From Lytechinus pictus (lineage: Eukaryota): a stretch of DNA of 64,000 nucleotides. The notes beneath the pieces were generated by a model, which worked only from the letters and a program-made list of their open reading frames with translations, did not search any database and had not been told where the DNA came from. Positions 5,452 to 57,857 of the stretch are shown piece after piece. Both the position numbers and the translations under genes were made by a program. The stretch lies in the NCBI RefSeq assembly GCF_037042905.1, contig NC_087250.1:13952001-14016000 (forward strand), given 5' to 3'. Position 1 is the stretch's first letter. Each line of letters begins with the position of its first letter.

Positions 5452-5619
5452 CTGAATAGCAACCTTACCACATAGATCACAAAAATATGGCTTCTAACCT
5501 GTATGGTATAGGATTGGAAGACAATTGCCTTCGATCACATAGGAAATCTAAACTCTTAACCTGTGTGGATTTTTTTAATGGTTTTGTGAGATGGTGGGGT
5601 CGATACTTTACCACATTGA

Positions 5620-8418
<2,799 letters not shown>

Positions 8419-8428
<10 letters not shown>

Positions 8429-11400
8429 TTAAATGCCTTACCACATTGATCAAACACATAGGGTTTCTCACCTGTATGGAATAATTTATGCCTTCTGAAA
8501 TCCCTATATTTATAAAATGCCTTACCACATTGATTACATACATGGGTTTTCTCACCTGTATAGATTAGTTTATGTGTTGTGAGACTATGTTTTTGATTGA
8601 ATGCCTTACCACATTGATCACACACATACTGTCTCTCACTTGTATGGATTTGTTTATGTATCGCGACACTATCAATTTGATTAAATGCCTTACCACATTG
8701 ATCGCATACATAAGGTTTCTCACCTGTATGGATTCGTTTGTGTCTTTTGAGGTCACTAGCTTGAATAAATGCCTTACCACATTGATCACATACATACAGT
8801 TTCTCACTCGTATGGATTCGTTTATGTGCTGTTAGACCATAAGATCTGGTAAATGCCCTTCCACACCTATCACATACATAGGGCTTCTTACCGGTATGGA
8901 TTTGTATATGTCTAGTGAGTTGGATAAATTCAGTAAATGTCTTGCCACATTGATCACACACATGGAGCTTCTCACCAGTATGTATGAGTTTATGTCTTTT
9001 GAGGTCACTAGCTTGAATAAATGCCTTACTACATTGTTCACATACATAGGGTTTCTCACCTGTATGGGTCCGTTTATGTGTTGTGAGATTCCATTTGTAA
9101 TTAAATGCATCACCGCATTGATCACATACACAAGGATTCTCACCTGTATGGATTTGTTTATGTGCTGTCAGATTAGATTGCCGAGCATATGCCTTACCAC
9201 ATTGATCATATACATAAGGATTCCCACCTGTATGATTTAGTTTATGTGCTGTTAGATCATAAGATCTGGTAAATGCCCTTCCACATTGATCACATACATA
9301 GGGCTTGTCACCTGTATGGATTTGTTTATGAATTCTGAGATTCCATTCATATTTAAATGCCTTATCGCATTGGTCACACACATAAGGTTTCTCAACTGTA
9401 TGGATTCGTTTATGTCTTATGACACTCTGTTTTTTGTTAAATCCCTTACCACATTGATCACATACATATGGTTTCTCACCTGCATGGATTCGATTATGTC
9501 TTATGAGACTCTGTTTTTTATCAAATCCCTTACCACATTGATCACATACATAAGGTTTCTCAACTGTATGGATTCGTTTATGTCTTATGAGACTCTGTTT
9601 TTTGTTAAATCCCTTACCACATTGATCACATACATATGGTTTCTCACCTGCATGGATTCGATTATGTCTTATGAGACTCTGTGTTTTATCAAATCCCTTA
9701 CCACATTGATCACATACATAAGGTTTCTCAACTGTGTGGATTCGTTTATGTCTTATGAGACTCTGTTTTTTGTTAAATCCCTTACCACATTGATCACATA
9801 CATAGGGTTTCTCACCTGCATGGATTCGATTATGTCTTATGAGACTCTGTTTTTTATTAAATCCCTTACCACATTGATCACATATATAAGATTTCTCAAC
9901 TGTATGCATTCGATTATGTCTTATGAGACTCTGTTTTTTGTTAAATGCCTTACCACATTGATCACATACATAGGGTTTCTCACCTGCATGGATTCGATTA
10001 TGTCTTATGAGACTCTGTTTTTTGTTAAATCCCTTACATTGATCACATACATAAGGTTTCTCACCTGTATGGATTCGATTATGTCTTATGAGACTCTGTT
10101 TTTTGTTAAATGCCTTACCACATTGATCACATACATAGGGTTTCTCACCTGCTTGGATTCGTTTATGTCTTATGAGACTCTGTTTTTTATTAAATGCCTT
10201 ACCACATTGATCACATACATAGGGTTTCTCACCTGCATGGATTCGATTATGTCTTATGAGACTCTGTTTTTTATTAAATCCCTTACCACATTGATCACAT
10301 ACATAGGGTTTCTCACCTGCATGGATTCGATTATGTCTTATGAGACTCTGTTTTTTATGAAATCCCTTACCACATTGATCACATACATAAGGTTTCTCAC
10401 CTGCATGGATTCGATTATGTCTTATGAGACTCTGTTTTTTATGAAATCCCTTACCACATTGATCACATACATAAGGTTTCTCACCTGTATGGATTCGTTT
10501 ATGTGCTGTGAGATTAGATTGTCGAGCATATGCCTTACCACATTGATCACATACATAAAGATTTTCACCTGTATGGATTAGTTTATGTGCTGTTAGATCA
10601 TAAGATCTCGTAAATGCCCTTCCACAAGGATCACATACATAGGGCTTGTCACCTGTATGGATATGCTCATGAATTCTGAGATTCCATTTGTATCTAAATG
10701 CCTTATCACATTGATCACACACATAGAGCTTCTCACCAGTATGGATTAGTTTATGTCTTGTGAGACCATTAGATTGACTAAATGCCATACCACATTGATC
10801 ACATACAGAGGGCCTTCCAGCGGTATGGATTTGTTTATGCCTTATGAGACTCTGTTTTTTATTAAATGCCTTAACACATTGATCACATACATACGGTTTC
10901 TCACCTGTATGGATTCGTTTATGTCTTATGAGACTTTGTTTTTTATTAAATCCCTTACCACATTGATCACATACATAGGGTTTCTCACCTGAATGGATTC
11001 GTTTATGTCTTTTAAGACTCTGTTTTTTGTAAAATGCTTTACCACATTGATCACATATATAGGGTTTCTCACCTGTATGGATTCGTGTATGTCTTATGAG
11101 ACTATGTTTTTTGTTAAATGCCTTAACACATTGACCACATACATAGGGTTTCTCACCTGTATGGATTCGTTTATGTCTTATGAGACTCTGTTTTTTATTA
11201 AATCCCTTACCACATTGATCACATACATAAGGTCTCTCATCTGTATGGATTCGTTTATGTCTTATGAGACTCTGTTTTTTGTTAAATGCCTTAGCACATT
11301 GATCACATACATAGGGTTTCTCACCTGCATGGATTCGAATATGTTTTATGAGACTCTGTTTTTTATTAAATCCCTTACCACATTGACCACATACATAGGG

Positions 11401-12608
11401 CTTCTCACCAGTATGGATTAGTTTATGTCTTGTGAGATTACCAGATCTACTAAATCCCTTACCACATTCATCGCATACATAAGGATTCCCACCTGTATGG
11501 ATCCGTTTATGTGTTGCGAGACTCTGAGATCGATTGAATGCCTTACCACATTGACCACATACATAAGATTTCTTACCTGTATGGATTCGTTTATGTGCTG
11601 TGAGATTAGATTGCCGAGCATATGCCTTACCACATTGATCACATACATAGGGTTTCTCACCTGTATGGATTAGTTTATGTCTTGTGAGACTCTGAGATTG
11701 ATTGAATGCCTTACCACATTGACCACATACATAGGGCTTGTCACCTGTATGGATATGTTTATGACTTCTGAGATGCCATTTGTGTCTAAATACCTTATCG
11801 CATTGATCACACACATAGGGCTTCTCACCAGTATGGATTAGTTTATGTCTTGTGAGATTACCAGATCTACTAAATCCCTTACCACATTCATCGCATACAT
11901 AAGGATTCCCACCTGTATGGATCTGTTTATGTGTTGCGAGACTCTGAGATTGATTGAATGCCTTACCACACTGACCACATACATAGGGCTTGTCACCTGT
12001 ATGGATATGTTTATGACTTCTGAGATTCCGTTTGTATTTAAATGCCTTACCACATTGATCGCATACATAGGGCCTTTCACCGGTATGGATATGTTTATGT
12101 CTTGTGAGATCATAAGATAGACTAAATCCCTTACCACATTGATCGCATACATAGGGCCTTTCACCGGTATGGATTTGTTTATGTCTAGTGAGATGATGTT
12201 CTAATTTAAATGCCTCACCGCATTGATCACATACATACAGTTTCTCACCTCTATGGATTCGTTTATGTCTTATGAGACTCTGTTTTTTATTAAATGCCTT
12301 ACCACATTGATCACATACAGAGGGCTTCTCATCATTAATTACTTCATGGCATGATGCAAAATATGAATCAATACTGGACTTACACTCAAGTATCATATTT
12401 CCTTCTTTTAAAATCCCCATTTCACCAAGTTCAAAGTCATTAGATTTACAGGGAGGTCTTTGTATTTCTCCATCAACAAACTGTAGAATGCCCTCCTGCG
12501 ACCGCATGTAGATACCACGTATTCCATGTTTGTACTTGAGATGCCTTGCTAAGATGAGAGGAATAGCATAGAATGATCCACAGTACTCACATCGGTAGAT
12601 CCCAGAAT
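8419..12608 (-). CDS. Gene A last coding exon: isolated C2H2 finger, spacer, then ~46 tandem C2H2 fingers
   Basis: Acceptor ctttttcaatAG|ATTCT, phase 1. Reads DSGIYRCEYCGSFYAIPLILARHLKYKHG in frame with the 1362-aa ORF, with TGEKPY linkers. Confidence 0.93.
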
Positions 12609-12737
12609 CTATTGAAAAAGAAATTTACATTGTCATATTATCATTAAATGATTCAGAGATTATATTAGGCCCGTAAAGACTCAAACATGATCGAAAAAGA
12701 ACATGGCAAAAAAATGACTTCAGTGTAAAACATACAT

Positions 12738-13047
12738 GGCCCGTATTCTGATAGCAGGTTTAACTTAAACTCTGGTTTAAAGTTGTGGTTTAAGTATGGA
12801 GAGCCAATTGTTACATAAATCACTAACAGTAGAGATATCATACTTCAGCTCATTTGGCTCTCAAATCATTCATAATTGTCTAGGAAGTATAAATAGATGA
12901 TTGTCTTCACCATCATGAATAAGGAAAGAGCATAGTAAACATAAGAAACATACAACTTAATAAAAATTTTGATACTTTTGGCTTCCCATACTTAAACCAC
13001 AACTTTAAACCTGAGTTTAAGTTAAACCTGCTATCAGAATACGGGCC
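12738..13047. mobile_element. Harbinger-like MITE in the last intron of gene A (shared with gene B)
   Basis: ~60-bp TIRs beginning ggcccgtattctgatagcaggtttaac; same element at 49536-49845. Confidence 0.8.
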
Positions 13048-13724
13048 ATGGGGAGTCTTAGGATGACAGTCGCATCATCGTTTGCATGCAGATACATTGC
13101 CAAGTGGCTTGTTCCAAATCAACATATAACTCGGGATGACATGATATATCATCCATGACTAGACAAGCCTTACATTGTATAACATGTACATGGAAGCAAG
13201 GATTAAAGTTCAGCAACCAAGACAACTGCCCCTACCCCTATACTTTTCAAGTAGTGAAAGGGGGGGGGGTGTGGATAACCAAAAGGAGAGAAGAAAATCA
13301 GAGATGTATAGATTATGTCAAGAAAATAAGACCATAAGCATTTATAAGTTTTAAAACAGAATGACTGTAGAGCTTTATTCTACATTATCCATCGGCGTAA
13401 AATGTGCCTATATTAATATGGACAGATGTTTGTTGACTGCAGTCTGTATGTGGCATTTATGTCCTTCATGTATACACTGGTGTTAGTATATAGATTAACA
13501 TAAACTTTAAATTCCAGTATACGGTCCTTAAGAGTGAAGAAAGAAGGTACTATTTCTCTCTTTTTAGGTAGTATCCAACTATATCAAGATACCCTACAGA
13601 ATTGAGATGGGAATGTAATTGATGTACAGAATTTTTAGGGAAGATCTATTTATTTCTTCACTGGTTAAACATAACCACTCATAAAAAAAAGAGGTCAAAT
13701 ACATATTGTTTTTTCTTTTTTTAC

Positions 13725-14142
13725 CTGAGCCCTTTCTTTCCTGCCAATCATCTCCTTCCTCCACTTTTGAACAAGATGGTTGGGATTGCTTGGGGGTCTG
13801 GTTGCCCGCTGAAGCTACTTCTGTCAAGGTCTGTTCAGTCTCCAGATCACATGACTTTGTTTTGAGATCCCCTGACTGAGTGTTGAGATCACCCAATTGC
13901 TTGGGAGTCTGGTCTCCCCCTGAAGCTACTTTTGTCAAGGTTTGTTCTGCCTTCAGATAACCTGACTGAGTGTTGAGATCACCTGACCTCTGATCACCTG
14001 ATGATGTTAGATTGATTTGTGTCTGGATAGCCTCATCATAGTCCTCAATTGCAAGGAGTGCAATGATTCCTTCTCCTTTGATTTCATGAGCATTTAGCAG
14101 ATTCCCATCATCATCATACTCAATCTCCACTTTAATAGTGAC
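13725..14142 (-). CDS. Gene A coding exon 4: acidic linker with internal repeats
   Basis: ttttaattAG|GTCACT ... GGCTCAG|GTaaaa; 418 nt, phase 0 to 1; VTIKVEIEYDDDG...ERKGS; conserved in gene B. Confidence 0.85.
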
Positions 14143-14617
14143 CTAATTAAAAAGAAAAAGGGACAAACTTTCACATATAACTGATGACATGACATACATG
14201 TTTACTTTGACACATGATCAGATTCATCCTATTCTTAGTGTGCCATCATAATGCAACCTGTGTTAAAAGACAGTTGGAGAACTATACTGTCTAGATTTTC
14301 CCTATGATATACTTTTGTTTATGGACTTTAATTACTCTATTGATCTCCAATATACCATTTAAAAGTCAATGAATGAGGACTTTGCATTGTTCTGTTACAG
14401 TCCATGGATGATTCAAACATGACCAGCTTGGCCATTCCTCACTAGAAACTAGAAAGAGTGATTCACTAGAACGGTAAAAGAGCTTGTGCTTCATCAAAGT
14501 AAAAGTTCACCATATAAAATGCAAAAATAGCAGAAAAAATTATTAAAAATATTGGTTAAGGTTTTAGGAAAATCCAGCAAGGATGAAAAAGTTAATATAA
14601 TTATTTTTTATTTGTGA

Positions 14618-15785
14618 CTGTTTCGATGATCGAAACTATTTATTTGTTGCAGATACCATAATATATGTTTATAGGTAAAAATCGGTTTCAGCCTAAAATT
14701 TTAGCTTCGAAACGTCATAAAACATCGAGCAATAAGTTTTGACAGAGTGCTTGAAATTTCTCAAAAAGTACCAGATTCCGTCTAGGATGAAGCTTGGCCA
14801 ACTAGTATTATGTAAAACAAAGTTCGTAGTTCCTGCCAAAGAAGTAAGTGTGCTTAGATATTGTTTTAAAAGGTTTTCTAAACCAATTATCTAAAATGTA
14901 AAAATGAAAGTGAAGAAAACCTTCACGTGGTTAAATGTTCATTTGCATAAATTTTGCATATTGTGAGGTCGCCGTATAGATAACAGAATGCGACACGTCT
15001 TGTATGAAAAAAGGTATAAAATTCATTGTGTTATACTTGTCAAGGAAAAAGAGAACGGAAAGAAATAATTGAGTTGAGGATAAATTATTTTGATGATAAT
15101 TATTTAAGAAATAACATTAGTTTCTTTGGATGAAAGAGGGATATGTAAGTTACGTAGATTTGGGACATGAAACCAAAACCGAAGTTACCACACTAAATTT
15201 GCATTGTTTATATTCAGCAATGAGTAGTAATTTCCAGGGTTTATGAAAGCTCATATATCTATGGAATATTATTTAAAGAGATATTATACAAGCATTTCAG
15301 ATTTATAAAATAATTTATGAATCAAACTGGACCAAAGCAATTTAATGTGGCTAGTCAAAGGAATTTAAGCAAACTTTTAAAGAGTTGTTTTGAGTAGGAT
15401 TTACAATTTGTCAAGTGAAATATTTATACTGAAATTCAAGTTGAATTTATTGTATTTTCCTGGAGATTTATTTTCCAGTACAAACATCAAAAGGATTACT
15501 GATGTAGCTTTTTTTTTAATATTTGCTAGGAAAATAATGCGGATATTTCATGAAGATATTATGATTACTACTGATAATTTTATGGTCCTTTTGCAAGTTA
15601 AGATAGAGCTGTCAAAAGTCAATAATCACACAAAGAGACATGGTTTGATGTTCATTCAGGTTCATCATTTATTTTGAGAAAGTACTATTGAAAGTGTGAT
15701 TTAATTAGACAAAATATGTTGAATTTCCGGTTCAATTGTTTGTTCTTTACAGATTGAATTTTTTTCTTCATAAACCTTAAACCAG
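14618..15785. mobile_element. Gene A-specific intronic insertion, possibly an old P/THAP9-like transposase remnant
   Basis: Absent at the gene B site near 51577; flanked by a (g)tga duplication. Only weak plus-strand motifs (FDDNYLRNNI, GYVSYVDLG). Confidence 0.5.
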
Positions 15786-16699
15786 TGATGCTTTATCATA
15801 ATTTCTGATGACTTTGATATTTTTTTTGTCTCAGGGCCCGATTCCATGCTAGAAAAATCAGCCATTTTCACAATATCTTTCAACCTGCTGTCCAAACGAA
15901 TGAAGAACAGAAAAATAATATATTGGCGATAGATAGGTAAGATGATGAGCCTTCTTGATGGATTTGGTTCAGTCGCTAAACTGTGTCTAGATTAGAGTCT
16001 GTTTTGACAGGTTAATGGCTGTAGAGGACTAATCTCCTATTCTTAATCTTATTTGTGGTTAGACAATGCCCAGAGTAGGTAAAGATCATCCACTCTTATA
16101 GGCTGCAGACAGTGAAGGCTCTACAAGGTGCATTCAGGGTCAAGTCAATCTCTGAAGTATGGAATGTCCTAAAGCAGTTCAGAATGAAGGGGGATTATTA
16201 GACCTGTTATATAGAAGAATTGTAAGAGCAATTACATTCATTTATTTAGTTATTTCCTCTTTAAGGATATCCATAGCCAAGAATGATAAAGAACATTCGA
16301 GAACGTGTTTGTAAAAGCTTTTGTTCTGCAGGCCTCATGCCTATTTAAAGGCCAAGGAATTTTATTTTTTAATAGGGAGAAGCAAACAATAGGATTCCAG
16401 TGGTAGTGGAAATGAACAATATGATTAGCTACATTGATTTCACTGAGGTCATTCAAGAATGTTTTAGAAATGAAGAATGCTCCAGAAAGGAGAATGTTCT
16501 AAATAATGGTGAATACTAGAAGTCTCTAGAATAGTTGAAATGTGTATAATATAAACTGCAGTTTCTTCAAGGACTTCATCACATCAGATCAGAACTCAGA
16601 GTTTCACGCCAGACTTTATGTCAGAGCAGAGTTCATTTCCACCTCGAATATTTATCTTCTGTGGAATTATTTGCCCGCCATCGATGAACTGTTCCACTG

Positions 16700-17644
16700 A
16701 CTGACTGAGCCAAAGAGATATCAGCCTTTGTTACACCTGGAGGCTTATTTCAATGCAAAGTCATGCCTTTTGGAATGAAAAATGCACCAGCAACCTTCCA
16801 AAGAGTAACAAATCAAGTGATTGTGGGACTTGACAATTGTGTCGTATACATAGACGACATCCTAGTGTACAGTGATACTTGGAATGATCATCTGGATCAT
16901 TTGAGAGCACTGTTTGACAGGCTGGATAAAGCCAATCTAGAAGGGAATCTGATGAAGAGTGAATTTGCCAAGGCAAAGGTCACATATCTTGGTCATGTGG
17001 TTGGTCAAGGGCAAGTGCTACCAAGAGAAGCCAAGATACAAGCTATCTTACACTTCCCAATTCCCACAACTAAGAAAGAATTGCTCAGATTCTTAGGTAT
17101 GAGTGGCTTCTACAAGAAATTCGTTCCAAATTACAGTACAGTGGTTAGCCCACTGACAAACCTGCTGAAGGCAAAAGTGAAGTATGTTTGGTCTGACGAA
17201 TGTCAGAGATCATTTGAGAAATTAAAGGCCATTTTGGTGAATGAGCCTGTTTTGGCAGCTCCAAACTTCACAAAGCCGTTCAAAGTAGCTATTGATGCTT
17301 GTGATGTTGGAGTAGGAGCAGCATTGCTCCAAGAAGATGAAGAAGGCATCGAAAAACCAGTGTGCTACTTCTCTACGAAACTAAATCAGCTTCAGAAGAA
17401 GTACTCAACTATTAAAAAAGAGGCCCTGAGTCTCGTACTAACCCTTCAGCAGTTTGAGGTGTATCTAACCAATGGAGAGATTACAGTCTATACAGACCAC
17501 AATCCTCTTGTGTTTTTGGAGAAATTCAGAACAAAGAACCAAAGACTGTACAGATGGAGCCTAATGCTCCAACCATTCCCTTTGAAAATTGTACACATAA
17601 AGGGAAATAATAATGTAATTGCTGATGCTCTTTCAAGAGTATAA
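16700..17644 (+). pseudogene. Partial pol (RT C-terminal half + RNase H), copy 1
   Basis: MPFGMKNAPATFQR, YIDD, DAC/EALS/YTDH/ADALSR motifs; 5' truncated and fused to a partial LTR. Confidence 0.9.
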
Positions 17645-18335
17645 AAAGTGAAATTATCTATGCTTTTGACCAAGTGTGTCATTTGAAGAAAATGTCTTTG
17701 ATGTCCATTTAAACATGTTTGTTAGTATTATATCTTTGTACACGATAATATAAATGATTTATCAAGATGATTTTGGAAAGTTAAAGGAAAAAATGACTCT
17801 TAAAGAAACCTTTACTACGGTAAAGCTTTCTTTTCCCCGGTGGGGGAGGTGTTATATATAAGAATTGTAAGAGCAATTACATTCATTTATTCAGTTATTT
17901 CCTCTTTAAGGATATCCATAGCCAAGAATGATAAAGAACATTCGAGAACGTGTTTGTAAAAGCTTTTGTTCTGCAGGCCTCTTGCCTATTTAAAGGCCAA
18001 GGAGTTTTATTTTTGAATAGGGAAAAGCAAACAATAGGATTCCAGTGGTAGTGGAAATGAACAATATGATTAGCTACATTGATTTCACTGAGGTCATTCA
18101 AGAATGTTTTAGAAATGTAGAATGCTCCAGAAAGGAGAATGTTCTAAATAATAGTGAATACTAGAAGTCTCTAGAATAGTTGAAATGTGTATAATATAAA
18201 CTGCAGTTTCTTCAAGGACTTCATCACATCAGATCAGAACTCAGAGTTTCACGCCAGACTTTATGTCAGAGCAGAGTTCATTTCCATCTCGAATATTTAT
18301 CTTCTGTGGAATTATTTGCCCGCCATCGATGAACT

Positions 18336-19289
18336 GTTCCACTGACTGACCGAGCCAAAGAGATATCAGCCTTTGTTACACCTGGAGGCTTATTTCAATG
18401 CAAAGTCATGCCTTTTGGAATGAAAAATGCACCAGCAACCTTCCAAAGAGTAACAAATCAAGTGATTGCGGGACTTGACAATTGTGTCGTATACATAGAC
18501 GACATCCTAGTGTACAGTGATACTTGGAATGATCATCTGGATCATTTGAGAGCACTGTTTGACAGGCTGGATAAAGCCAATCTAGAAGGGAATCTGATGA
18601 AGAGTGAATTTGCCAAGGCAAAGGTCACATATCTTGGTCATGTGGTTGGTCAAGGGCAAGTGCTACCAAGAGAAGCCAAGATACAAGCTATCTTACACTT
18701 CCCAATTCCCACAACTAAGAAAGAATTGCTCAGATTCTTAGGTATGAGTGGCTTCTACAAGAAATTTGTTCCAAATTACAGTACAGTGGTTAGCCCACTG
18801 ACAAACCTGCTGAAGGCAAAAGTGAAGTATGTTTGGTCTGACGAATGTCAGAGATCATTTGAGAAATTAAAGGCCATTTTGGTGAATGAGCCTGTTTTGG
18901 CAGCTCCAAACTTCACAAAGCCGTTCAAAGTAGCTATTGATGCTTGTGATGTTGGAGTAGGAGCAGTATTGCTCCAAGAAGATGAAGAAGGCATCGAAAA
19001 ACCAGTGTGCTACTTCTCTACGAAACTCAATCGGCTTCAGAAGAAGTGCTCAACTATTGAAAAAGAGGCCCTGAGTCTCGTACTAGCCCTTCAGCAGTTT
19101 AAGGTGTATCTAACCAATGGAGAGATTACAGTCTATACAGACCACAATCCTCTTGTGTTTTTGAAGAAATTCAAAACAAAGAACCAAAGACTGTACAGAT
19201 GGAGCCTAATGCTCCAACCATTCCCTTTGAAAATTGTACACATAAAGGGAAAGAATAATGTAATTGCTGATGCTCTTTCAAGAGTATAA
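18336..19289 (+). pseudogene. Partial pol (RT C-terminal half + RNase H), copy 2
   Basis: Duplicate of copy 1 at offset 1645; starts VPLTDRAKEISAFVTP. Confidence 0.9.
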
Positions 19290-20515
19290 AAAGTGAAATT
19301 ATCTATGCTTTTGACCAAGTGTGTCATTTGAAGAAAATGTCTTTGATGTCCATTTAAACATGTTTGTTAGTATTATATCTTTGTACACGATAATATAAAT
19401 GATTTATCAAGATGATTTTGGAAAGTTAAAGGAAAAAATGTAATCTTAAAGAAACCTTTACTACGGTAAAGCTTTCTTTTCCCCGGTGGGGGAGGTGTTA
19501 TATATAAGAATTGTAAGAGCAATTACATTTATTTATTTAGTTATTTCCTCTTTAAGGATATCCTTAGCCAAGAATGATAAAGAACTAACGTGTTTGTAAA
19601 AGCTTTTGTTCTGCAGGCCTCTTTAAAGGCCAAGGAGTTTTATTTTTGAATAGGGAAAAGCAAACAATAGGATTCCAGTGGTAGTGGAAATGAACAATAG
19701 GATTAGCTATGTTGTTGATTTCACTGAGGTCATTCAAGAATGTTTTAGAAATGTAGAATGCTCCAGAAAGGAGAATGTTCTAAATAATAGTGAATACTAG
19801 AAGTCTCTAGAATAGTTGAAATGTGTATAATATAAACTGCAGTTTCTTCAAGGACTTCATCACATCAGATCAGAACTCAGAGTTTCACGCCAGACTTTAT
19901 GTCAGAGCAGAGTTTATTTCCACCTGGAATATTTATCTTCTGTGGAATTATTTGCCTGCCATCAATGAACTGTTTGCAGTTATTTTGAGAGGAATTCTCA
20001 GTTCTCATCGAGATCATCAACATCATCAACCTGTTCAATGAACTTTTTTCAACCCATGGATTGCTGAAATTGACTGTTAATCATCAACACGTCTTTGCGG
20101 ACATTTCAACTCGTTACAGTTTCTCTCTTTATTCATCGTGCTTCAACATCCGTTTCATCGTCGCCATCATTGTGAACTTTCATTTATCCAACCAACTTGG
20201 ATTATTACTTGGATACAGTATCATCACTTCGGAATTTTACCTCTACCACTTCAAGAAATGTACATGTAAGACCAATATATATATATTTATTTATGTTTTA
20301 TTAGTTTTTGAGTGTTATATTTCCTGTAATAAAAACAAAGAGGAAATCAAATCTAAATTTTAAATTATTTACTTGTTATTTGTTGCAGTATCGTAACAGA
20401 CCATGTAAAACGAAACCACACAAGAAGTAAACAGGAAGAATTAAAATGTTTTGATTACAAATATGGAATTTCAAATATAGCATGCTATGTAATTCATTAT
20501 TTGACAGGTACTTAC

Positions 20516-20595
20516 ATGATTTGGACTGTCTTCGTGTAACTTGTTCTCGTTTATATGATCTGGCTTTTCGTACTCGACAGGTACTTGGAAGGGTT
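20516..20595 (-). CDS. Gene A coding exon 3
   Basis: aattcAG|AACCC ... AATCAT|GTaagt; 80 nt, phase 1 to 0; EPFQVPVEYEKPDHINENKLHEDSPNH; conserved in gene B. Confidence 0.8.
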
Positions 20596-20809
20596 CTGAA
20601 TTTTGATTAAAATATTTGAAAAGAAAAAGGATATCAACATTTTGTCCTCAATTCACTGTATAACTTATGAAATGCCTATGATTTTAAAAGTTGTGCGGGA
20701 CTTGAAAGAAAAGTGAAAAAAAAAAGAAAAGTGGATCACTTTTTGGTTGCAAGGAGCAAGGAACAATGAGTGGGGCCATAATACATGTACCTTCGAGTGC
20801 CAGACGTAC

Positions 20810-20872
20810 CTAGCATCATTTCCTCATCCTCGCTGTCATTCTCCTCTTTGATCTCTATTTTTATTTCTTGCT
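20810..20872 (-). pseudogene. Partial duplicate of coding exon 2 (lacks its 5' part and acceptor)
   Basis: Encodes QEIKIEIKEENDSEDEEMML with donor GTacgt; homologous to 21323-21385 and 53382-53444. Confidence 0.75.
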
Positions 20873-21322
20873 CTTATTATTCATCTGTATCACATTCATA
20901 ATCTGCAATTCACAATCTGATCATGTAGAATGCCTTTCTGATATCTTCTCCATAAAACTGTCTTGTATCTAACTATTGAGAAGTAAATGAACACCTGAAC
21001 ACCTTTAGGCCTTCCCTCAAGGCTACAAACATTGAAAACTAAATGGCTTTCCTCCCTTAAGTCACCAGTTGATTCACTGCCGTGTATTTCGTCAGCACTG
21101 GTGACTTCTTTCCACTCCCATTACCTTGGAAATGTTCTGGTGTTTAGTATATATACATGTGAAAAAAAAAGGACGTCAACAGTTTATTCTCATGGACACA
21201 AATTCATTGCACTTCTCAAAAGCAAATGATATTAAAAAGTTGTGCAGGACTTGAAAGGAAAAATATGAGCGTGCCACAATACCCTCCAGTGCTTCCAAAA
21301 GAAAGCTTATTCCCAAACGTAC

Positions 21323-21421
21323 CTAACATCATTTCCTCATCCTCACTATCATTTTCCTCTTTGATCTCTATTTTTATTTCTAGCTGACGTTGCATAAACA
21401 TAGGTGGATTGACCTGTAATC
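21323..21421 (-). CDS. Gene A coding exon 2: C-terminal part of the ancestral KRAB plus acidic/SUMO-consensus segment
   Basis: tttcaaacAG|GATTA ... TTAG|GTacgt; 99 nt, phase 1 to 1; GLQVNPPMFMQRQLEIKIEIKEENDSEDEEMML. Confidence 0.85.
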
Positions 21422-22024
21422 CTGTTTGAAAAAAAAAACACACCATGGGTTAATAATACATCTAAAAAGTTTTTAAACAGAAACATGACATCATGGTAAA
21501 TTATGTGTCTCTGCAAGTATCCTGCTCTTGGCTAACCTTTCAGCTCTTATTATTCATCTGTATCACATTCATAATCTGCAATTCACAGTCTGATCATGTA
21601 GAATGCCTTTCTGATATCTTCTTCATAAAATTGTCTTGTATTGAACTATTGAGAATATATGGTTTTCTCTTGTAACACCTTTACCCTCAGGGCCGCAAAC
21701 ATTGAAAACTGAATTCTGTAGGTCCCCACAAAAGAAAAATAGCAATCTAAACTTAATCATTTTTTGAAAGACGACATTTCATTATTTTGTGTATGGACCC
21801 TGTCCTGACTGTAAGCCTACATTTATAAGCAAACAATTCTGAAATCATCATACCATTTTGTAAAAACTTACAATCTCCTCTGATATTTCTTTTAAATTTC
21901 CATTTGGGTTGTATACCCATTTCACGATAATTAATCCTAAAACATAAAAAGTAATAATTCTATTATTGCAAGAATGAAAATAGGACCCCAAAATTTTATA
22001 ACATTGATATTATTGAATAATGAA

Positions 22025-22390
22025 CAGGTTGCTACATAACTTTTTGAAGCACTTGCGCAGTCGGGCAAGTAAATGTTTGAATAGTTGGAAGAATATACTT
22101 GCCCAAAAAATCTATATCACTTGCCTGAAAAAATCATTACAAAAAGTTTTACCTCTTCAAAAGAAAGTTTTGTGGTTTTATAAACCATTGACCTTTTTCT
22201 CTCTTTTGACATGAACTGATCTACTTTATTATTGCATTTCTTCTTTTTCCAAAGTGATTTTATTAGGGTCAATATAATATCAACCCTAATTTTGTGAGAA
22301 TTTTGCTTGCCCATTTAGGGCAAATAGTTTTAGTCTTTAATTCAAAACACTTGCCCCGGGCAATCAGGCAAGTGCTTATGTAGCACCCTG
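22025..22390. mobile_element. hAT-like MITE
   Basis: TIRs caggttgctacata / tatgtagcaccctg, atgaa on both flanks, subterminal cttgcc repeats. Confidence 0.7.
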
Positions 22391-22411
22391 ATGAACGTCG
22401 ACTATACCTAC

Positions 22412-22556
22412 CAACTTTGTTCATCATCTCATAGTTTTCTTTGACGTTCTTGATACAAATTCTTTCATAACTGCTGAACTGTGCCCATTCCGTGGCTGTG
22501 AAGTAAACCTGGACGTCTAAAAGATACTGATCCATCTCTGACTCTGGCAAAGACAT
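22412..22556 (-). CDS. Gene A first coding exon: ancestral (PRDM9/SSX-type) KRAB-A domain
   Basis: MSLPESEMDQYLLDVQVYFTATEWAQFSSYERICIKNVKENYEMMNKV|G; donor GTTG|GTaggt, phase 1; candidate acceptor ttttcttccAG ahead of 22644. Confidence 0.85.
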
Positions 22557-22899
22557 GATGTGATGTAATAATGATGATGCGATGGTGGCTTGCTTGCAAA
22601 CTGAAGGCACAAATATTTTCCCGTTCCAAGAGGCAAGATTGCGACTGGAAGAAAAATACAAAGTTTTTGTTTAAAGATTACATTTGATCTGCAGCTAAGG
22701 CTTCATGGACTGGTCTCACAGTCACTGTCTATCTCAGTATAACTCAATAAATAGACTGAGATTTACTTTTTTTAGATTGTTATTCAGACCTGATGTTGCA
22801 ATCATAAAATGATGAAAAGTGGCCCATCACTGCCACAAACAACCATAATTAAATTAATAACTACAAGGTCTTACATCAAGCTAGTTAAATATGAATTAA

Positions 22900-23255
22900 C
22901 AATATTCTTAAATCTGTCCATGTTGGGAGCTAAAGGGAATGTGTTGGAGGGGAGTGAATTCCAAAGCCGAGACATCCTTCGACTATATGAAGATTGATGA
23001 AGAAAAGTATTTGACTCTGGGACAGTGACTCTGTAGGTATCAAACGGACATTGGGGGCCAAGGGGGGAAGAATTCTAGACAACTCAAGGGATGGTTTCAG
23101 GAAGAAGTGACAGTAGAAGGTACAGAGAGAAACAACATTTATCCGGTGCTTGAGAGGATAAAGCCCAACTTCGGAAGGGTCTTCAATTCTCAGGAAGCGG
23201 AGTGCTTTCCGCTGTAACCTATCAAGAAGTGTGAGTACACTGGTACCAGCTCCAG
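22900..23255 (-). mobile_element. 3' fragment of a non-LTR retrotransposon ORF2
   Basis: LLDRLQRKALRFL...LYPLKHRINVVSLCTFY resembles the LINE post-RT C-terminal region. Confidence 0.6.
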
Positions 23256-23579
23256 CCCGGTCAGCCCTTCCACAACTTAAAACTGAAATCATTTTTTGAG
23301 CTTTGAAAATTCCTTAGATTTGGTTAAAATTCCTTAAATTTATGTTTTGAGTCAAAGTGACAGCTTTATGAGCCAAAACTTTACAAAAGGGACCCAGATA
23401 AGTCGTATGGGGCAGACATTTTAAAAGACCTTTTTACTGTAGAAATATAAAATATAAATTATATATATGTATATATATACATATATATATATACACGTAT
23501 ATATACACACATATATATTCATATTTATTGTCATAAATTTTAACACATTATTCAGAAAATGTTTCCCCCTTCTCCATTC

Positions 23580-26500
23580 CAGGGTTGGGTTCAATTACAT
23601 AAAATTACTTTTTTGCAAGTAATTTTAAATTTGTAATTGAAATTTTCAAAGGGAAAGTAATTATAATTAACTTCAATTACTGTCAATACATTCAATTACA
23701 TTACTTTACTACTTAATTTATTGATTAATTTACTCTGGATTGCATATTTTTCTTTTCCCGTAGCTATAGGTGCATATCTCTTGCATGCAACTGTATTCTT
23801 TCCCATGATGTGGAGGAAACAGGAAACAATATTGCGATAAAGAAGTGCACAAATTGACCATTTGAAATATTTGTGAAAATTTGCATAGGTCATAGGTTCC
23901 AACAAGAAATCAAACTATGTAAATTTTCATACTAGCAAAGTTGCAATTCTTATAAACTCATACAGTGGCCTCATTTTTTTATGTAAGAATAAACGTAAGA
24001 TCTTTAGACTACATGTAAGTTGGAAACACCCCCTCAAAAATTCGGGGAGAATGTGGATGAAAATATTTTGTCCTGCCCCCCCCCCCCCTATAGGCGAAAG
24101 CTTGAACTGCCCTTGATGAATGAGGTCGCGACTCATAAGTAAAGTTTACATGATGTACATCATGATCTTTATAAATGAAGAAAGCATGCGGATCAACATA
24201 TTGTTGAGAATGTCAATTGACTTTAGCATTAAACGGAGCGATAGGCAGGATCAATGCTGTCTAAACTAATTAACTTCATCTTGTCAGTTTATCTCTAACT
24301 TTTAATAGAATTATGTTGAAATGGGTGGCACTACACACAAAATATTTCATTTATGACTATATAATAATAATAATAATAATAATAATAGATGCTTATATAG
24401 CGCATAATATTCTACAGAATCTCTATGCGCTTTACAAAAGAGGTAATTAAGTCTAATACAGGTATACTTAGAATAAAATACTAAATGAAAGATTAACAAA
24501 ACATTGTAACATACCGCTCCTAAACAAAATTATCTAACATGAGAACAAGTACGTTTTTAAAAAATTTAGAAAGGTGGAAGTACATGTGATGGCCCTCAGA
24601 TTATTAGGCAGTTTATTCCACAGTACAGGTGCCGCTGACTGAAAGGCACGATCCCCAAACGAACATGTTTTAGACGTTGGTACAGTTAAAAAATTATGGC
24701 GAGAAGAGCGGAGATTTCTTTGTGGGACATATTCAGTAATCAGATTATACAGGTACAATGGGGACTTACTAACTAATGTTTTATGACATATTGCTATTAT
24801 CTTGAAAACAATTCTCTTCTGTACAGGCAACCAATGCAAGTGCGACAACAAGGGCGTAATGGGATCTTTACCTTTAGCACGCATGATAAGTCTGGCTGCG
24901 CTGTTTTGCACTATTTGTATCTTTCTTAAATCCTTTTCAGGCAGGCCATATAAAAGTGAATTGCAAAAGTCAATTCTGGAAGAAACAAAAGCGTGAATTA
25001 ACATTTCAGTGGTCTTTTTACACTTGAAGTAATTCCGAATTTTTGCAATTCTTCTCAATGAACACATTGCAATTTGAGTCATAATCCTAACAGGTTCTTT
25101 TAATTGAAGGTGTTGATCCATGTGAACGCCAAGGTTGCGTGCTTTGGTTGTCTCATGTACATCCACCCCATCTATTTCAATACAAGCAGGTGTTAAAGCA
25201 GGATTCAACTGAGATGAAAAATGAATCACTTCAGTCTTCTGTGGGTTGATTTTCAAACTATTTCTTCAGCGAGACAAACATTAATCCTGCTTGTAGCATT
25301 CTGCAGATCATGTGGTTTGAATGCTAAATACATTTGAGTGTCGTCAGCATATAGCATTGTTTCCAGGCCATGGGACTTGATAATTGCTGATATTGGAGAG
25401 CTGTATAGCGTGTAGAACAATGGACCAATTATCGATCCCTGAGGCACCCCGCATAAGTCAGTGATTGGTTTGGAAACAGCTTCCTTCACCTTCACAACAT
25501 GTGTACGTTGTGAGAGGTAGGATGATATCCACTTCCGTACAGACCCATCGATACCATACAAATGTTTCAAGCGATTTATCAAAATGTCATGGTTAATCAG
25601 ATCAAATGCAGCACTAAAATCTAAGAGGACCTGCAGAACTTCATTTCTATCATCGAGAAAGACCAATATGTCATTCTGTACCCCGAGCAGAGCAGTTTCA
25701 ACACTGTTGTGTGGCTTATAAGCTGCCTGAAAGTGGTTGTGCAGATCGTTTTCGAACAGGTATTCCTGGAGTTGTTTGACAACAGCTTTCTCAATTAATT
25801 TTCCCATGAAGCAAAGATTAGAAATTGGACGATAGTTAGACAGATCATCGGCCGAAACATTGGATTTCTTGATGAGTGGTGTCACGACTGCTCTTTTTAA
25901 CTAAGAAGGAAAGACTCCGGTTTCAAGACTAGTGTTAATAATCTTCTTCATCAATGGTAGTAATACTAGGGCACACTTCTTGGTAATAGTAGTAGGCATG
26001 GGATCTAGAGGGGAGGTTGCAGATGATGACGACTTAATCAGTTTCAGAACATCAGCTTCATTGAGTTTCTAATTTAGACAGTGAAGAATGGCATGTTTCA
26101 TTGTGCTCAATAGAGCCATGATCACCTGACTGTGCCTTATCCACTTCAAGCAACAGATTAGAGATCTTCTGATGGAAATAGTCAGCAAATTCATTTGCTA
26201 ATGATTCTGCACAAGTATGGGGTGGCAGAACGTTTGGTTTTACGGTAGCTAGCTTCTCCACAGTCTGAAATAATTTACGTGAATCGCAAGAGTCTATCTT
26301 ATCATGGAAGTATGATGATTTCACGACTGCTAATTTATCGTAGTAACGTTTACTCCCAGTCCTGTAAATCTGTCGATCAATCTCAGTTTTAGACTTCAGC
26401 ATTCGCCGCTCACAGTGACGTCGCTCCTGCTTTGCAACCCGAAGAGAATCATTGTAGTAGGGAGCGTTTGGGCGAAGAATGACATGTCTATCTTTCACTG

Positions 26501-27224
26501 GTGCATGTTGATTCAATACATCCTCCAGAGACATGTTATACAGGTCAACTAACAAATCGATACCATCTGGATCGTTCCCCTCAAGCCTCTTTGACAGATC
26601 CCGCTGGAGTAGATTGAAGTTGATATTTTTCATGTTGCGTGAGAGAAGATGTTCCTAACCTCTTGAGGCCGACCTAGGCGAAGATTACATGTAACCGCTG
26701 CATGATCTGAAGGCAGATGACTGTGTTTCTCTAGACCTGAGATGATATGATCACCTGCATCAGATATAACAAGGTCTAATGTATGGCCGGACAAATGGGT
26801 TGGGAAAGACACATGGTTCTGGAGGTTGAAAATGCCTAAGACATCTTTAAACGCCAAACTTCCATATGGAAATTCAAGTCTCCTACCAAAAGTATCTTTT
26901 GTGAAGTTACTTGTAGACTTTCAAGTAAGGAAGTAAACTCATCTAGGAAAACGGCTGGTCTGCTTCCCGTCCTCTTCCGGCTGTATGGAGGGCGGTATAT
27001 GACCAGTAGGCGAATGACATGAGATGGCGAGTTAGGGGACATAATACAAATGTCCATGTATTTAAAGGAATTCAATTATTCATATAGAAAGTAATTGAAA
27101 TTGTAACTGACAAAAGTAATTGGTATAATGGAAATTGTAGTTGAAAAAATGTAATTTAGCTGAAAAGTAATAGAACATTTCTTCAATTATGTAATTGTAA
27201 AAAAAGTAATTAAGCCCAACCCTG
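23580..27224. mobile_element. hAT-like non-autonomous element hosting the L2 insertion
   Basis: TIRs cagggttgggttcaattac / gtaattaagcccaaccctg, with multiple subterminal aattac/gtaatt motifs. Confidence 0.65.
24360..27075 (-). mobile_element. 5'-truncated L2-clade LINE (endonuclease + RT, disrupted)
   Basis: IYRPP, VGDLNFH, THLSGHTLDLV (APE); YRPISNL, GVPQGS, YADD (RT); HAFVSSRIDFCNSLL and HWLPV; (TTA)n tail; several frameshifts and stops. Confidence 0.92.
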
Positions 27225-35203: not shown

Positions 35204-35603
35204 GCCGGTAAACGCGGTAGCCGCAGCGCGTAGCGGCCTAGCCTGCCCGCTCCGATCCCCGGGCCCGCTCTGGCTCTGCCGACAATTGGCCAGTTGGCTG
35301 GCAGGCTGGAGGAGGCGGAGCACGGACCACGCTTACCTCTGACTCTGAGGCTCTGCATCTGGATGAATATTGCAGGTCTGCAGTTTCATTTACTCACCAG
35401 AATTATCGCAGTGCTAATAAAATCGACATTATCCTCCTGGTTTTCTTTAAGTCACCAGTCCATTCACTGCTGTTTATTTCGTCAGCTAGCGCTGGACTCG
35501 GCCTCGGTCCCGTCCAGACGCAGTACTTTTTTAATTCAAGTTTGTATTGTTAGTAATACGGTAATGGATTATGGAAAGCTATTTGTGCCTTCAGTTTCAG
35601 CCA
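35204..35603. promoter_or_regulatory. GC-rich inverted copy of the gene B upstream/5' region (61805-62197)
   Basis: Long co-linear reverse-complement match that includes the KRAB-exon UTR motif tatttgtgccttcagttt; minus-strand donor-like CAGAG|GTAAGC at 35337. Confidence 0.6.
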
Positions 35604-45878: not shown

Positions 45879-45985
45879 TTAAATAGGCATATACTCAACA
45901 ATTTGATGATAAAAGTAAACACCTGTGTTGATTTTTTTATGTTTTGTGAGATGGTGGGGTCGATTGGATTATTTTACCACATTGA

Positions 45986-47313: not shown

Positions 47314-47897
47314 AGGAGAATGAAACCCTTGAAACCAGCTGAATCCATATCAAAGAGAAAAATCAAAGAAACATATTGTTGAAAGTTTGAGGAAGATTGA
47401 ATGAATAATAAGAAAGTTATGAGCATTTGAATATTGAGATCACTAGTGCCATGTAGATCCTCCCATCGGCAATGCGACCAAGATCTGTGATATCACACAC
47501 GTACAACTCCCTCCTTACTTTAGTACTTATTTCACTTATATTCTCACTTTTACTAGAGTCTATCACAAGGTGAGGTGTTCTCTTTATGAGATGACGAGTA
47601 CAGAGGTTTCACAACATTATATCATTGATGAATCGTTTGTCATATGATTAGAATGAGCAAAAAGAGATGTTTTGGGGTATATTTTCAGTGTCCAAATGGG
47701 AGAGTTGTACGTGTGTGACATCACAGATCTTGGTCGCATTGCCAATGGGAGGATCTCCATATCATTAGTGATCTCGACATTCAAATACTCATAACTCTTT
47801 TATTGCTAGTCCTATTTTACTCAAACTTTTGTTGATCTTATTCTTTGATTTTTCTGCTTTCACAAAAGCTAACTTGCTCCAAGAGTTTCATTCTCCT
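47314..47897. mobile_element. TTAA-flanked Kolobok-like MITE interrupting the gene B array
   Basis: TTAA-aggagaatgaaac ... gtttcattctcct-TTAA; internal inverted repeats; supplies the stop FKGE*. Confidence 0.9.
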
Positions 47898-49401
47898 TTA
47901 AATGCTTCACCACATTGATCACATACATAGGGTTTCTCACCTGTATGGATTCGTTTATGTCTTATGAGACTCTGTTTTTTATTAAATGCCTTACCACATT
48001 GATCACATACATAAGGTTTCTCACCTGTATGGATTCGTTTATGTGCTGTGAGATTAGATTGTCGAGCATATGCCTTACCACATTGATCACATACATAAAG
48101 ATTTTCACCTGTATGGATAAGTTTATGTGCTGTTAGATCATAAGATCTCGTAAATGCCCTTCCACATGGATCACATACATAGGGCTTGTCACCTATATGG
48201 ATATGCTCATGACTTCTGAGATTCCATTTGTATCTAAATGCCCTATCACATTGATCACACACATAGGGCTTCTCAACGGTATGGATTAGTTTATGTCTTG
48301 TGAGACCATTAGATTTACTAAATGCTTTACTACATTTATCACATACAAAGGGCTTTTCCCCTGTATGGATCCGTTTATGTTCTATGAGATGATGTTCTAA
48401 TTTAAATCCCTTACCACATTGATCGCATACATAAGGTTTCTCAACTGCATGGATTTGTTTATGTCTAGTGAGATTATGTTCTAATTTAAACACCTTACCA
48501 CATTGATCACATACATACGGTTTCTCACCAGTATGGATTCGTTTATGTATAGTGAGAGCGTTTAATCGAGTAAATGCCTTGCCACATTGATCACACACAC
48601 AGGGCTTCTCACCGGTATGGATTCGTTTATGTCTCGTGAGATCACCAGATTGACTAAATGCTTTACTACATTTATCACATACAAAGGGCTTTTCACCTGT
48701 ATGGATCCGTTTATGTTCTATGAGATGATGTTCTAATTTAAATCCCTTACCACATTGATCGCATACATAGGGCCTTTCACCGGTATGGATTAGTTTATGT
48801 CTTGTGAGATCATAAGATAGACTTAATCCCTTACCACATTGATCGCATACATAGGGCCTTTCACCGGTATGGATTTGTTTATGTCTAGTGAGATGATGTT
48901 CTAATTTAAATGCCTCACCGCATTGATCACATGCATACAGTTTCTCACCTGTATGGATTCGTTTATGTCTTATGAGACTCTGTTTTTTATTAAATGCTTC
49001 ACCACATTGATCACATACATAGGGTTTCTCACCTGTATGGATTCGTTTATGTCTTATGAGACTCTGTTTTTTATTAAATGCCTTACCACATTGATCACAT
49101 ACAGAGGGCTTCTCATCATTAATTACTTCATGGCATGATGCAAAATATGAATCTATACTTGACTTACACTCAAGTATCATATTTACTTCACTTCCTTCTT
49201 TTAAAATCCCCATTTCACCAAGTTCAAAGTCATTAGATTTACAGGGAGGTCTTTGTATTTCTCCATCAACAAACTGTAGAATGCCCTCCTGCGACCGCAT
49301 GTAGATACCATGTATTCCATGTTTGTCCTTGAGATGCCTTGCTAAGATGAGAGGAATAGCATAGAATGATCCACAGTACTCACATCGGTAGATCCCAGAA
49401 T
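47888..49401 (-). CDS. Gene B last coding exon: isolated finger plus 14 tandem C2H2 fingers, truncated
   Basis: Acceptor ctttccaatAG|ATTCT; in frame with the 470-aa ORF; paralogous to the gene A exon. Confidence 0.85.
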
Positions 49402-50523: not shown

Positions 50524-51103
50524 CTGAGCCCTTTCTTTCCTGCCAATCATCTCCTTCCTCCACTTTTGAACAAGATGGTTGGGATTGCTTGGGAGTCTGC
50601 TCGCCCGCTGAAGCTACTTCTGTCAAGAATTGTTCTCTCTTCTGATCACATGACTGAGTGCTGAGATCCCCTGATTGCTTGGGAATCTGGTCTCCCCCTG
50701 GAGCAACTTCTGTCAAAGTTTGTTCAGTCTTCAGATCACATGACAGAGTGTTGAGATCACCTGACTGAGTGTTGAGATCACCCAATTGCTTGGGAGTCTG
50801 GTCTCCCCCTGAAGCTACTTTTGTCAAGGTTTGTTCTGCCTTCAGATAACCTGATTGAGTGCTGAGATCGCCTGATTGCTTGTGAGTCTGGTCGCCCGCT
50901 GAAGCTACATCTGTCAAGGTTTGTTCCGCCTCCTGATCACATGACTGAGTGTTGAGATCACCTGATGGTGTTGGATTGATTTGTAACTGGATAGCTTCAT
51001 CATAGTCCTCAATTGGAAGGAGTGCAATGATTCCCTCTCCTTTGATTTCATGAGCATTTAGCAGATTCCCATCATCATACTTAATCTCCACTTTAATAGT
51101 GAC
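50524..51103 (-). CDS. Gene B coding exon 4 with expanded internal repeats
   Basis: Same splice sites as gene A; 580 nt, phase 0 to 1; four (E)QTLTEVASxGDQTPKQ-type units. Confidence 0.8.
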
Positions 51104-53094: not shown

Positions 53095-53174
53095 ATGATT
53101 TGGACTCTCTTCCTGTAACTTGTTCTCCTTTATATGATCTGGCTTTTCATCTTCGACAGGTACATGGAAAGGTT
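53095..53174 (-). CDS. Gene B coding exon 3 (donor mutated GT>GG)
   Basis: EPFHVPVEDEKPDHIKENKLQEESPNH followed by GGaagt instead of GTaagt. Confidence 0.7.
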
Positions 53175-53381: not shown

Positions 53382-53480
53382 CTAACATCATTTTCTCATC
53401 CTCGCTGTCATTTTCCTCTTTGATCTCTATTTTTATTTCTTGCTGACGTTGTATGAACATCGGTGGAGTGACCTGTAGTC
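53382..53480 (-). CDS. Gene B coding exon 2 (KRAB C-terminal part)
   Basis: 99 nt; GLQVTPPMFIQRQQEIKIEIKEENDSEDEKMML; canonical AG/GT. Confidence 0.82.
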
Positions 53481-57706: not shown

Positions 57707-57857
57707 CAACTTTGTTCATCATCTCATAGTTTTCTTTGACGTTCTTGATACAAATTCTTTCATAACTGCTGAACTTTGCCCATTCCATGGCTGTGAAGTA
57801 AACCTGGACGTCTAAAAGATACTGATCCATCTCTGCCTCTGGCAAAGTCAAAGACAT
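57707..57857 (-). CDS. Gene B first coding exon: ancestral KRAB-A domain
   Basis: MSLTLPEAEMDQYLLDVQVYFTAMEWAKFSSYERICIKNVKENYEMMNKV|G; donor GTaggt, phase 1. Confidence 0.82.

Follow-up and report, generated by a model that had tools for sequence, protein, structure and literature searches.

How the KRAB domain of meiotic PRDM9 turned into the effector of the largest family of vertebrate repressors is the question raised by a 64,000-nucleotide stretch of Lytechinus pictus DNA (the window). A sequence-only reading of this stretch had described a KRAB domain intermediate between the PRDM9 type and modern KRAB-A, lacking the MLE motif linked to TRIM28 binding and followed by several SUMO consensus sites. 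We therefore asked what class of KRAB this is, what gene carries it, and how that gene might act.

A transcribed and spliced KRAB-zinc-finger gene

The gene concerned, gene A, is encoded on the minus strand, with its KRAB exons at 22556-22412 and 21421-21323. Its parts are the following (window positions).

22557..22644, minus strand: 5' part of the KRAB exon, either 5' UTR or a short N-terminal extension; preceded by an AG acceptor and matched with 0 differences by a piece of an RNA contig
22412..22556, minus strand: coding exon 1, ancestral KRAB-A of PRDM9 type, with a gap at A32, E24, K33-E34 and C27 (22457-22455)
21323..21421, minus strand: exon 2 (phase 1-1), aKRAB-B with PxxFM, then IKIE, IKEE and an acidic tail (NDSM-like)
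20810..20872, minus strand: incomplete copy of the 3' portion of exon 2, with both SUMO-type motifs and a GT donor kept
20516..20595, minus strand: exon 3 (phase 1-0), acidic, in place of the PRDM9 basic stretch; has junction reads
13725..14142, minus strand: exon 4, encoding a linker with homology to that of urchin PRDM9; it contains IKVE, IKGE and LKAE and is predicted to be disordered
8419..12608, minus strand: exon 5, lone post-SET PRDM9 finger (12591-12526), spacer and 42 canonical C2H2 fingers; an insertion ends the frame
5550..6675, minus strand: rest of the finger array past the insertion, with 8 fingers split over two frames

When the five coding exons are joined they give an open frame of 1643 residues. 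The first 322 residues of this spliced model are identical to RefSeq protein P0001 (LOC129263773, Lytechinus pictus), a model that stops upstream of the finger array. Exon 1 runs from the ATG to the first base of a Gly codon and encodes DVQVYFTATEW (22517-22485) and KNVKENY. The phase-1 intron at this Gly, as proposed from the letters alone, has GT-AG borders, and three stranded RNA runs cross its junction (22412/21421) with 16, 32 and 22 reads. In the same runs the later junctions had 6, 10 and 0 reads (exons 2-3), 17, 12 and 14 reads (exons 3-4) and 11, 27 and 9 reads (exons 4-5), and a further joint, from exon 2 to exon 4 and spanning unknown letters, had 7, 10 and 11. The linker-to-finger intron (1.1 kb) is removed whole in RNA, with exon 4 joined directly to exon 5, and contigs from a fourth RNA run agree without difference with parts of exons 1, 4 and 5. 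Gene A is transcribed and spliced. The evidence comes from raw RNA reads mapped to 12300-23400, which covers only the first bases of the finger array, and the mapped reads are mostly 95-99% alike, such that alleles or paralogs may contribute. No exon was located upstream of 22557..22644, and the duplicate at 20810..20872 has no good acceptor and is absent from the RNA joints listed. Two tandem Ty3/Gypsy-like RT-RNase H frames lie in the third intron (window 16709-19289), and fragmented LINE RT frames are present upstream of the KRAB exon (window 24534-26654).

The KRAB domain belongs with ancestral KRABs of the PRDM9 subgroup

To classify the domain, we built an alignment of 161 KRAB stretches taken from 162 proteins, the library matches being the best 150 of 178. 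The groups were assigned by us: PRDM9 by a SET match, modern by the A32 insertion, coelacanth-type by motif (two of the five are named Latimeria) and SSX-like likewise by motif. P0089 was left out as a false match, and P0082, P0087 and P0097 were counted as PRDM9 rather than modern. Consistent with the earlier by-eye alignment to the PRDM9 pattern, the KRAB of gene A scored 57.4 bits with a PRDM9 profile built with urchins excluded, compared with 30.8 bits for the modern, 27.9 for the coelacanth-type and 27.7 for the SSX-type profile, all of these subgroup profiles being our own builds and not those of Lorenz 2022. KRAB-A identity is 0.58 to urchin PRDM9 and 0.36 to modern KRAB. A published comparison treats the S. 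purpuratus PRDM9 with this KRAB as a PRDM9 ortholog, with E values of ~1e-20 for the PRDM9 profile and ~1e-3 for the modern one (PMC8835667, Table S1).

The residues taken earlier as typical of modern KRAB-A (DV.V.FT..EW and ENY) are indeed present, but they are no modern hallmark. Among the matches listed, V8 is found in 8 of 10 urchin PRDM9-type proteins, and F12, T13, E16 and W17, as well as K33, E34, N35 and Y36, each in 10 of 10. Since V8, FT..EW and KENY are already found in urchin PRDM9, these residues are inherited; DV versus DI is described as irrelevant to repression (Lorenz 2022, PMC8835667). The absence of MLE had been read correctly: gene A has gap-K-E in place of M-L-E at A32-34, and the alignment confirms the gap at A32 that leaves the domain one residue shorter. 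This one-residue gap occurs in 16/16 members of the SET-less family to which gene A belongs, and M occupies the position in 22/22 modern KRABs, among the matches listed. E24 is likewise found in 16/16 family members, gene A combining E24 with C27 rather than Q24 with L or V27, and its B region reads PPMFM (PxxFM).

In a KRAB tree (42 of the 161 rows, picked across groups; 49 columns, a short alignment under a simple model), the Lytechinus SET-less family (98/97) is nested among the PRDM9 proteins of echinoids and hemichordates, with modern and coelacanth-type KRABs placed elsewhere (99/96). AU tests, run after the tree had been seen but on a hypothesis taken from the sequence-only reading, rejected grouping the family with modern KRAB (p-AU 0.005) or with modern plus coelacanth-type KRABs (p-AU 0.028) but did not reject the grouping with urchin PRDM9 (p-AU 0.45). 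Overall, profile, alignment and tree place the KRAB of gene A with the ancestral KRABs (aKRAB), in the PRDM9 subgroup, and not in between that subgroup and modern KRAB-A.

There is some resemblance to modern KRAB. Relative to urchin PRDM9, 4 of the 12 changes in the family consensus (D7, V10, R25 and V31) are to the modern residue and 0 are away from it, D7 being also the commonest residue in other PRDM9. With the modern profile, gene A reaches 30.8 bits versus 18-24 for urchin PRDM9, although this profile favours an urchin query because its members were retrieved with that query. The Pfam KRAB model (PF01352), which is independent of this bias, gave 21.7 bits for the exon alone and 17.4 for the whole protein, against a cut-off of 20.4; at E<0.05 it detected 13/15 of the SET-less but 0/9 of the camarodont PRDM9-type proteins, all below the cut-off. 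We interpret these changes as slight parallel drift toward modern KRAB rather than descent. An evolutionary intermediate on the way from PRDM9 aKRAB to modern KRAB-A would also account for the four matching changes and the modern-profile score; with the AU tests and the identities against it, and a linker and lone finger specific to urchin PRDM9, this is hardly credible. The 'missing link' reading of the urchin KRAB is corrected accordingly.

Arginine at A27 is replaced in the SET-less family

Position A27 separates the groups. Among the matches listed, it is Arg in 10/10 urchin PRDM9-type and 42/47 other SET-bearing PRDM9 proteins, Cys in 16/16 family members, Val in 5/5 coelacanth-type and Leu in 21/22 modern KRABs. 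The five SET-bearing proteins with S27 are all from insects, four thrips and one spittlebug. Further SET-less aKRAB gene models were found in thrips (P0100), abalone (P0143), sawshark (P0028) and spiders (P0145 and P0159). Three of these five have finger arrays, the two short spider proteins do not, and Cys stands at A27 in 4/5, including the thrips and sawshark models. Loss of R27 with loss of SET is not universal, since abalone P0143 and S. purpuratus P0018 are SET-less yet retain R27. The C27 codon of gene A is TGT, which may be a single CpG-type change away from an Arg codon. According to the accessible text of Lorenz 2022 (PMC8835667), R27 to V was the most important step besides MLE, and A27 and A34 are named as likely TRIM28 contacts.

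Gene A derives from an urchin PRDM9

The same profile also found full-length, PR/SET-bearing urchin PRDM9 proteins (P0017, P0019, P0021 and P0022). Residues 1-46, 43-76, 122-223 and 432-487 of P0021 match exons of gene A and of its paralog B in collinear order, and the start of the lone-finger exon is 71% identical to P0021. In a tblastn search of the 64-kb window, P0021 residues ~225-430, which comprise SSXRD, the zinc knuckle and PR/SET, had no match below E 1. By these matches gene A is identified as an urchin PRDM9 duplicate minus the SSXRD, zinc-knuckle and PR/SET exons. In a lone-finger tree (15 rows, 58 columns), eight SET-less Lytechinus proteins fall together (89/96) beside camarodont PRDM9, and Diadema PRDM9 stands apart from them. 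By this placement the SET-less family is younger than the Diadema split, and by its close L. variegatus counterparts (P0003, P0010 and P0014) it is older than the parting of L. pictus and L. variegatus. A search with the lone finger matched 4 proteins and is little informative on range.

Two candidate features were rejected. Intronic duplicates at 21543-21714 and 20870-21044 had been taken by eye for decayed SSXRD, and three PRDM9 queries gave no match to them. A P0019 match that continues past the lone finger into intron sequence (12756-12609) was judged a chance extension, scoring 87.0 versus 86.3 for the unextended P0021 match, and SET-bearing P0017 has no match there.

SUMO-consensus sites were gained in the linker

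The linker of gene A (210 aa) contains five psi-K-x-E sites (IKIE, IKEE, IKVE, IKGE and LKAE), in agreement with the several sites noted earlier after the KRAB. Shuffled linkers are expected to have 0.33 (P=0.0002) and 30-residue local shuffles 0.36 (P=0.0001). IKIE (21377-21366) and IKEE (21365-21354) are both in exon 2; IKVE (14136-14125) is in exon 4, 7 kb off and beyond the two KRAB exons to which the sequence-only reading was confined, in the same protein. Four of the five sites are followed by an acidic tail, the NDSM pattern (as defined in PMC3816760).

Across 15 family linkers, [IVL]-K-x-E was observed 57 times versus 4.2 expected (maximum 11 in 1000 shuffles). Since the family members are related, these 57 sites are not independent and go back to roughly six site origins and to the repetition of exons; the exon-2 unit is repeated in paralogs P0003, P0009, P0012 and P0013. 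Six control motifs all remained within the shuffle range (observed/expected): psi-R-x-E 0/1.8, psi-K-x-D 1/3.2, psi-Q-x-E 1/5.5, psi-E-x-E 9/5.8, small-K-x-E 9/6.6 and the inverted motif 10/4.2. Per 100 residues, and among the matches listed, psi-K-x-E occurs at 1.82 in the family (15/16 proteins), 0 in 10 urchin PRDM9-type proteins, 0.08 in 47 other PRDM9 and 0.39 in 22 modern KRAB proteins. At least one site was found in 14/14 SET-less sequences tested and in 0/8 urchin PRDM9-type sequences; P0008 has a single site (P=0.11). The sites align to motif-free positions of PRDM9 (IVEE to IKEE, VTSG to IKVE), and a basic PRDM9 stretch has become acidic, K+R falling from 19-21 to 6 and D+E rising from 8-9 to 19. 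That the psi-K-x-E cluster is a specific gain of the SET-less family is strongly supported by these comparisons.

A tandem paralog shares the layout

Paralog B lies in tandem to gene A on the minus strand (57857-47888). Its parts are as follows.

57707..57857, minus strand: KRAB-A exon (RefSeq P0002), with a LINE insertion immediately upstream
53382..53480, minus strand: exon 2, aKRAB-B, IKIE and IKEE
53095..53174, minus strand: exon 3, with a GG donor in place of GT
50524..51103, minus strand: linker exon, with PRDM9 protein matches
47888..49401, minus strand: finger exon holding the lone finger and 14 more, interrupted by an insertion

Between A and B, dN/dS is 0.12 for exon 2 (P=0.006), which indicates purifying selection, and 0.31 for all non-array codons (P=0.008). 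In the 46 codons of the KRAB-A exon the two genes differ by 3 non-synonymous changes and 0 synonymous ones, which does not demonstrate purifying selection on the KRAB itself. Comparing A (12612-13720) with B (49405-50520), the linker-to-finger intron shows 99% identity, and identity in the 5' introns is ~90%; together with the lack of synonymous differences in KRAB-A, this makes patchy gene conversion between the two genes possible. Part of the paralog B array (1104 bases) is duplicated at 99% identity at ~45920-47315, representing either a tandem duplication or an assembly artefact.

Mobile elements have entered both genes. A LINE at window 57984-61695 (endonuclease and RT frames, high GC) splits off the 5' part of paralog B exon 1, the remaining piece of which is at window 61800-61831, and insertions interrupt both finger arrays (window 6700-8418 in gene A and 47363-47887 in paralog B). 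An inverted 400-base element, 79% identical between window 35203-35601 and 61809-62197, reaches the conserved 5' leader of the KRAB exon; it is possibly the promoter or 5' region of a third, truncated copy, or else a repeat.

Finger arrays and predicted structure

Fingers of the SET-less arrays are 0.48-0.62 identical to one another (gene A 0.62) versus 0.73-0.83 in urchin PRDM9, with a contact share of 0.24-0.29 (gene A 0.24) versus 0.41-0.62. By these measures the SET-less arrays resemble those of ordinary multi-finger regulators and not the hotspot-defining arrays of PRDM9. Within the otherwise mixed array of gene A, 17 of the 42 fingers, 11 of them consecutive, have an identical contact set, a recent minisatellite-like expansion.

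AlphaFold2 on P0001 gave a confident model for ~residues 30-90, in which the KRAB is predicted as a short helix plus a long helix (pLDDT above 90), and placed the psi-K-x-E sites in low-confidence coil. The KRAB model aligned with a solved KRAB (7z36_D) at Z 3.5 over 36 residues (rmsd 2.8), a score equalled by unrelated helices. Foldseek returned no match at E<=0.001 for both models, and the best VIA-align scores (Z 4.5 and 3.7) fell on unrelated helices.

A proposed model of TRIM28-independent silencing and its alternatives

Taken together, we favour, at a probability of roughly 60%, the reading that gene A is a transcribed SET-less PRDM9 duplicate, likely a DNA-binding repressor, whose gained psi-K-x-E sites would be SUMOylated and would recruit silencing enzymes independently of TRIM28. 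The finger array would bind DNA, possibly repeats or transposons, and Ubc9 would SUMOylate the acidic-tailed sites in the disordered linker. SUMO would in turn recruit corepressors that carry a SIM (SetDB1 or NuRD, for example), as in fly Bonus, for which SUMO-dependent SetDB1/NuRD silencing is described (PMC10672805). The KRAB, released from its meiotic role (R27 to C), may have been retained as a secondary docking or folding module. Predicted transposon matches have been reported for urchin zinc-finger motifs in aggregate, a result that is not specific to the SET-less PRDM9 family (PMC10547256), and the isolated PRDM9 aKRAB gave no repression in HeLa cells (PMC8835667, PMC3912051). Since TRIM28 is reported, in the accessible part of PMC3912051, in tetrapods and lobe-finned fish only, independence from TRIM28 is to be expected in an urchin.

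The absence of MLE is also compatible with a partner from the TIF1 family, since the aKRAB-ZNFs of the coelacanth, which lack this motif too, bind its TRIM28 (PMC8835667). It is conceivable, if unlikely, that the KRAB was re-tuned for an urchin TIF1-family corepressor, with the SUMO sites being auxiliary. C27 and E34, both at likely TRIM28 contacts and present in 16/16 family members, would fit this, as would R27 to V as a key step (PMC8835667) and the slightly shifted Pfam KRAB score. However, E34 is inherited from urchin PRDM9, C27 would need only the CpG-type change noted above, the A32 insertion and the modern B box are absent, E24 is retained, and the reported range of TRIM28 (PMC3912051) again speaks against it. 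The retention of the KRAB and lone finger, the presence of full-length PRDM9 copies in L. pictus (P0019 and P0021) and the binding of CXXC1 by the mouse PRDM9 KRAB (PMC5688218) would suit catalytically dead germ-line modulators of PRDM9, whose KRAB binds CXXC1 or EWSR1, or whose arrays occupy sites, such that hotspots are damped or redirected. We consider this quite improbable: R27, conserved in SET-bearing PRDM9, is lost, the arrays are without the PRDM9 homogenisation signature, and the gain of SUMO motifs and the basic-to-acidic switch are left unexplained. Very little credence is given to a reading as birth-and-death debris of PRDM9 duplications, with a drifting head and functionless motifs, although truncated copies of PRDM9 occur commonly (cnidarian preprint 10.64898/2026.09.07.749791), lesions are present in paralog B and synonymous differences are absent from the KRAB-A exon. 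Spliced transcripts, the dN/dS of 0.31, the close L. variegatus counterparts P0003, P0010 and P0014 and the exact psi-K-x-E specificity against six control motifs all argue against this reading.

Relation to known systems

Gene A is closest to camarodont PRDM9/Meisetz (P0019 and P0021; L. variegatus P0022; S. purpuratus P0017, the W4YDS2 type of Table S1 in PMC8835667), with which it shares the A32 gap, V8/FT/EW/KENY, PxxFM, the linker, the post-SET lone finger and the domain order. It differs in the loss of SSXRD, knuckle and PR/SET, in R27 to C and K25 to R, in an acidic in place of a basic patch, in having five psi-K-x-E sites versus 0, and in a heterogeneous array. Like the coelacanth aKRAB-ZNFs (lcha KZNF, PMC8835667; P0033 and P0161), it combines an aKRAB with a C2H2 array without SSXRD or SET, and has the A32 gap, a non-Arg A27 and E34. 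In contrast to them, its origin is separate (p-AU 0.028), it has five coding exons where coelacanth genes are usually single-exon, it reads PPMFM rather than PKPDFM, its family is small versus >200 in coelacanth, the five coelacanth-type linkers have 0 psi-K-x-E, and the coelacanth has TRIM28, of which none is reported in invertebrates. The tetrapod KRAB-ZFPs (ZNF10, ZNF93 and ZFP568) resemble it in a KRAB, disordered spacer and tandem C2H2 fingers, in clustered young paralogs and in the KRAB-A helix pattern, but gene A is without the M32 insertion, Q24 and the modern KRAB-B and shares no descent with them beyond PRDM9. Cyprinid FiNZ (PMC10547256) offer a non-tetrapod case of TRIM28-free repression with an acidic N-terminal module, FiNZ being unrelated to KRAB. 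Drosophila Bonus (PMC10672805) recruits SetDB1 in a SUMO-dependent manner, but is a corepressor rather than a DNA reader and has a single SUMO site.

What looks like an independent invertebrate origin of the KRAB-zinc-finger layout has few counterparts in print. SET-less aKRAB-ZNFs are stated for the coelacanth only in the accessible text of Lorenz 2022 (PMC8835667), a 2015 review, in the part available, gives invertebrates Prdm9 only (PMC4327956), and the truncated paralogs of the 2026 cnidarian preprint are, as far as its accessible text goes, defined by having SET. No published account of a SET-less Lytechinus PRDM9 family was found in the literature covered, subscription journals lying outside it. 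We tentatively suggest, at less than even odds, that urchins rebuilt KRAB-ZNF silencing from PRDM9, with each reader carrying its own SUMO platform, multiplied by exon repeats, and no TRIM28 dock, and that loss of R27 is a repeated first step when a KRAB leaves PRDM9. Such a step would be seen in Lytechinus, in coelacanth and tetrapod KRABs, in SSX and in the thrips and sawshark SET-less copies. Lytechinus would then be a living test of the beginnings of KRAB repression, a young, independent replay in a tractable sea urchin in which the parent gene is still present and a before/after comparison is possible. The SUMO-site hypothesis would also indicate how non-tetrapod zinc-finger families could silence without TRIM28.

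Variant domain architectures

In two Lytechinus family members, P0014 and P0016, a PHD finger occupies the exact place of the SET region of PRDM9; a writer domain has been swapped for a likely reader domain. This PHD finger presumably resembles the DIDO1/PHF3 type. A THAP domain precedes the same KRAB head in RefSeq models P0004, P0005 and P0011, which are without a finger array and could be real fusions or model artefacts. S. purpuratus P0018 is a separate SET-less PRDM9 model that retains R27 and a stretch resembling SSXRD and has its exon 2 repeated but is without psi-K-x-E, and thus provides a natural control in which SET was lost and the SUMO motifs were not gained.
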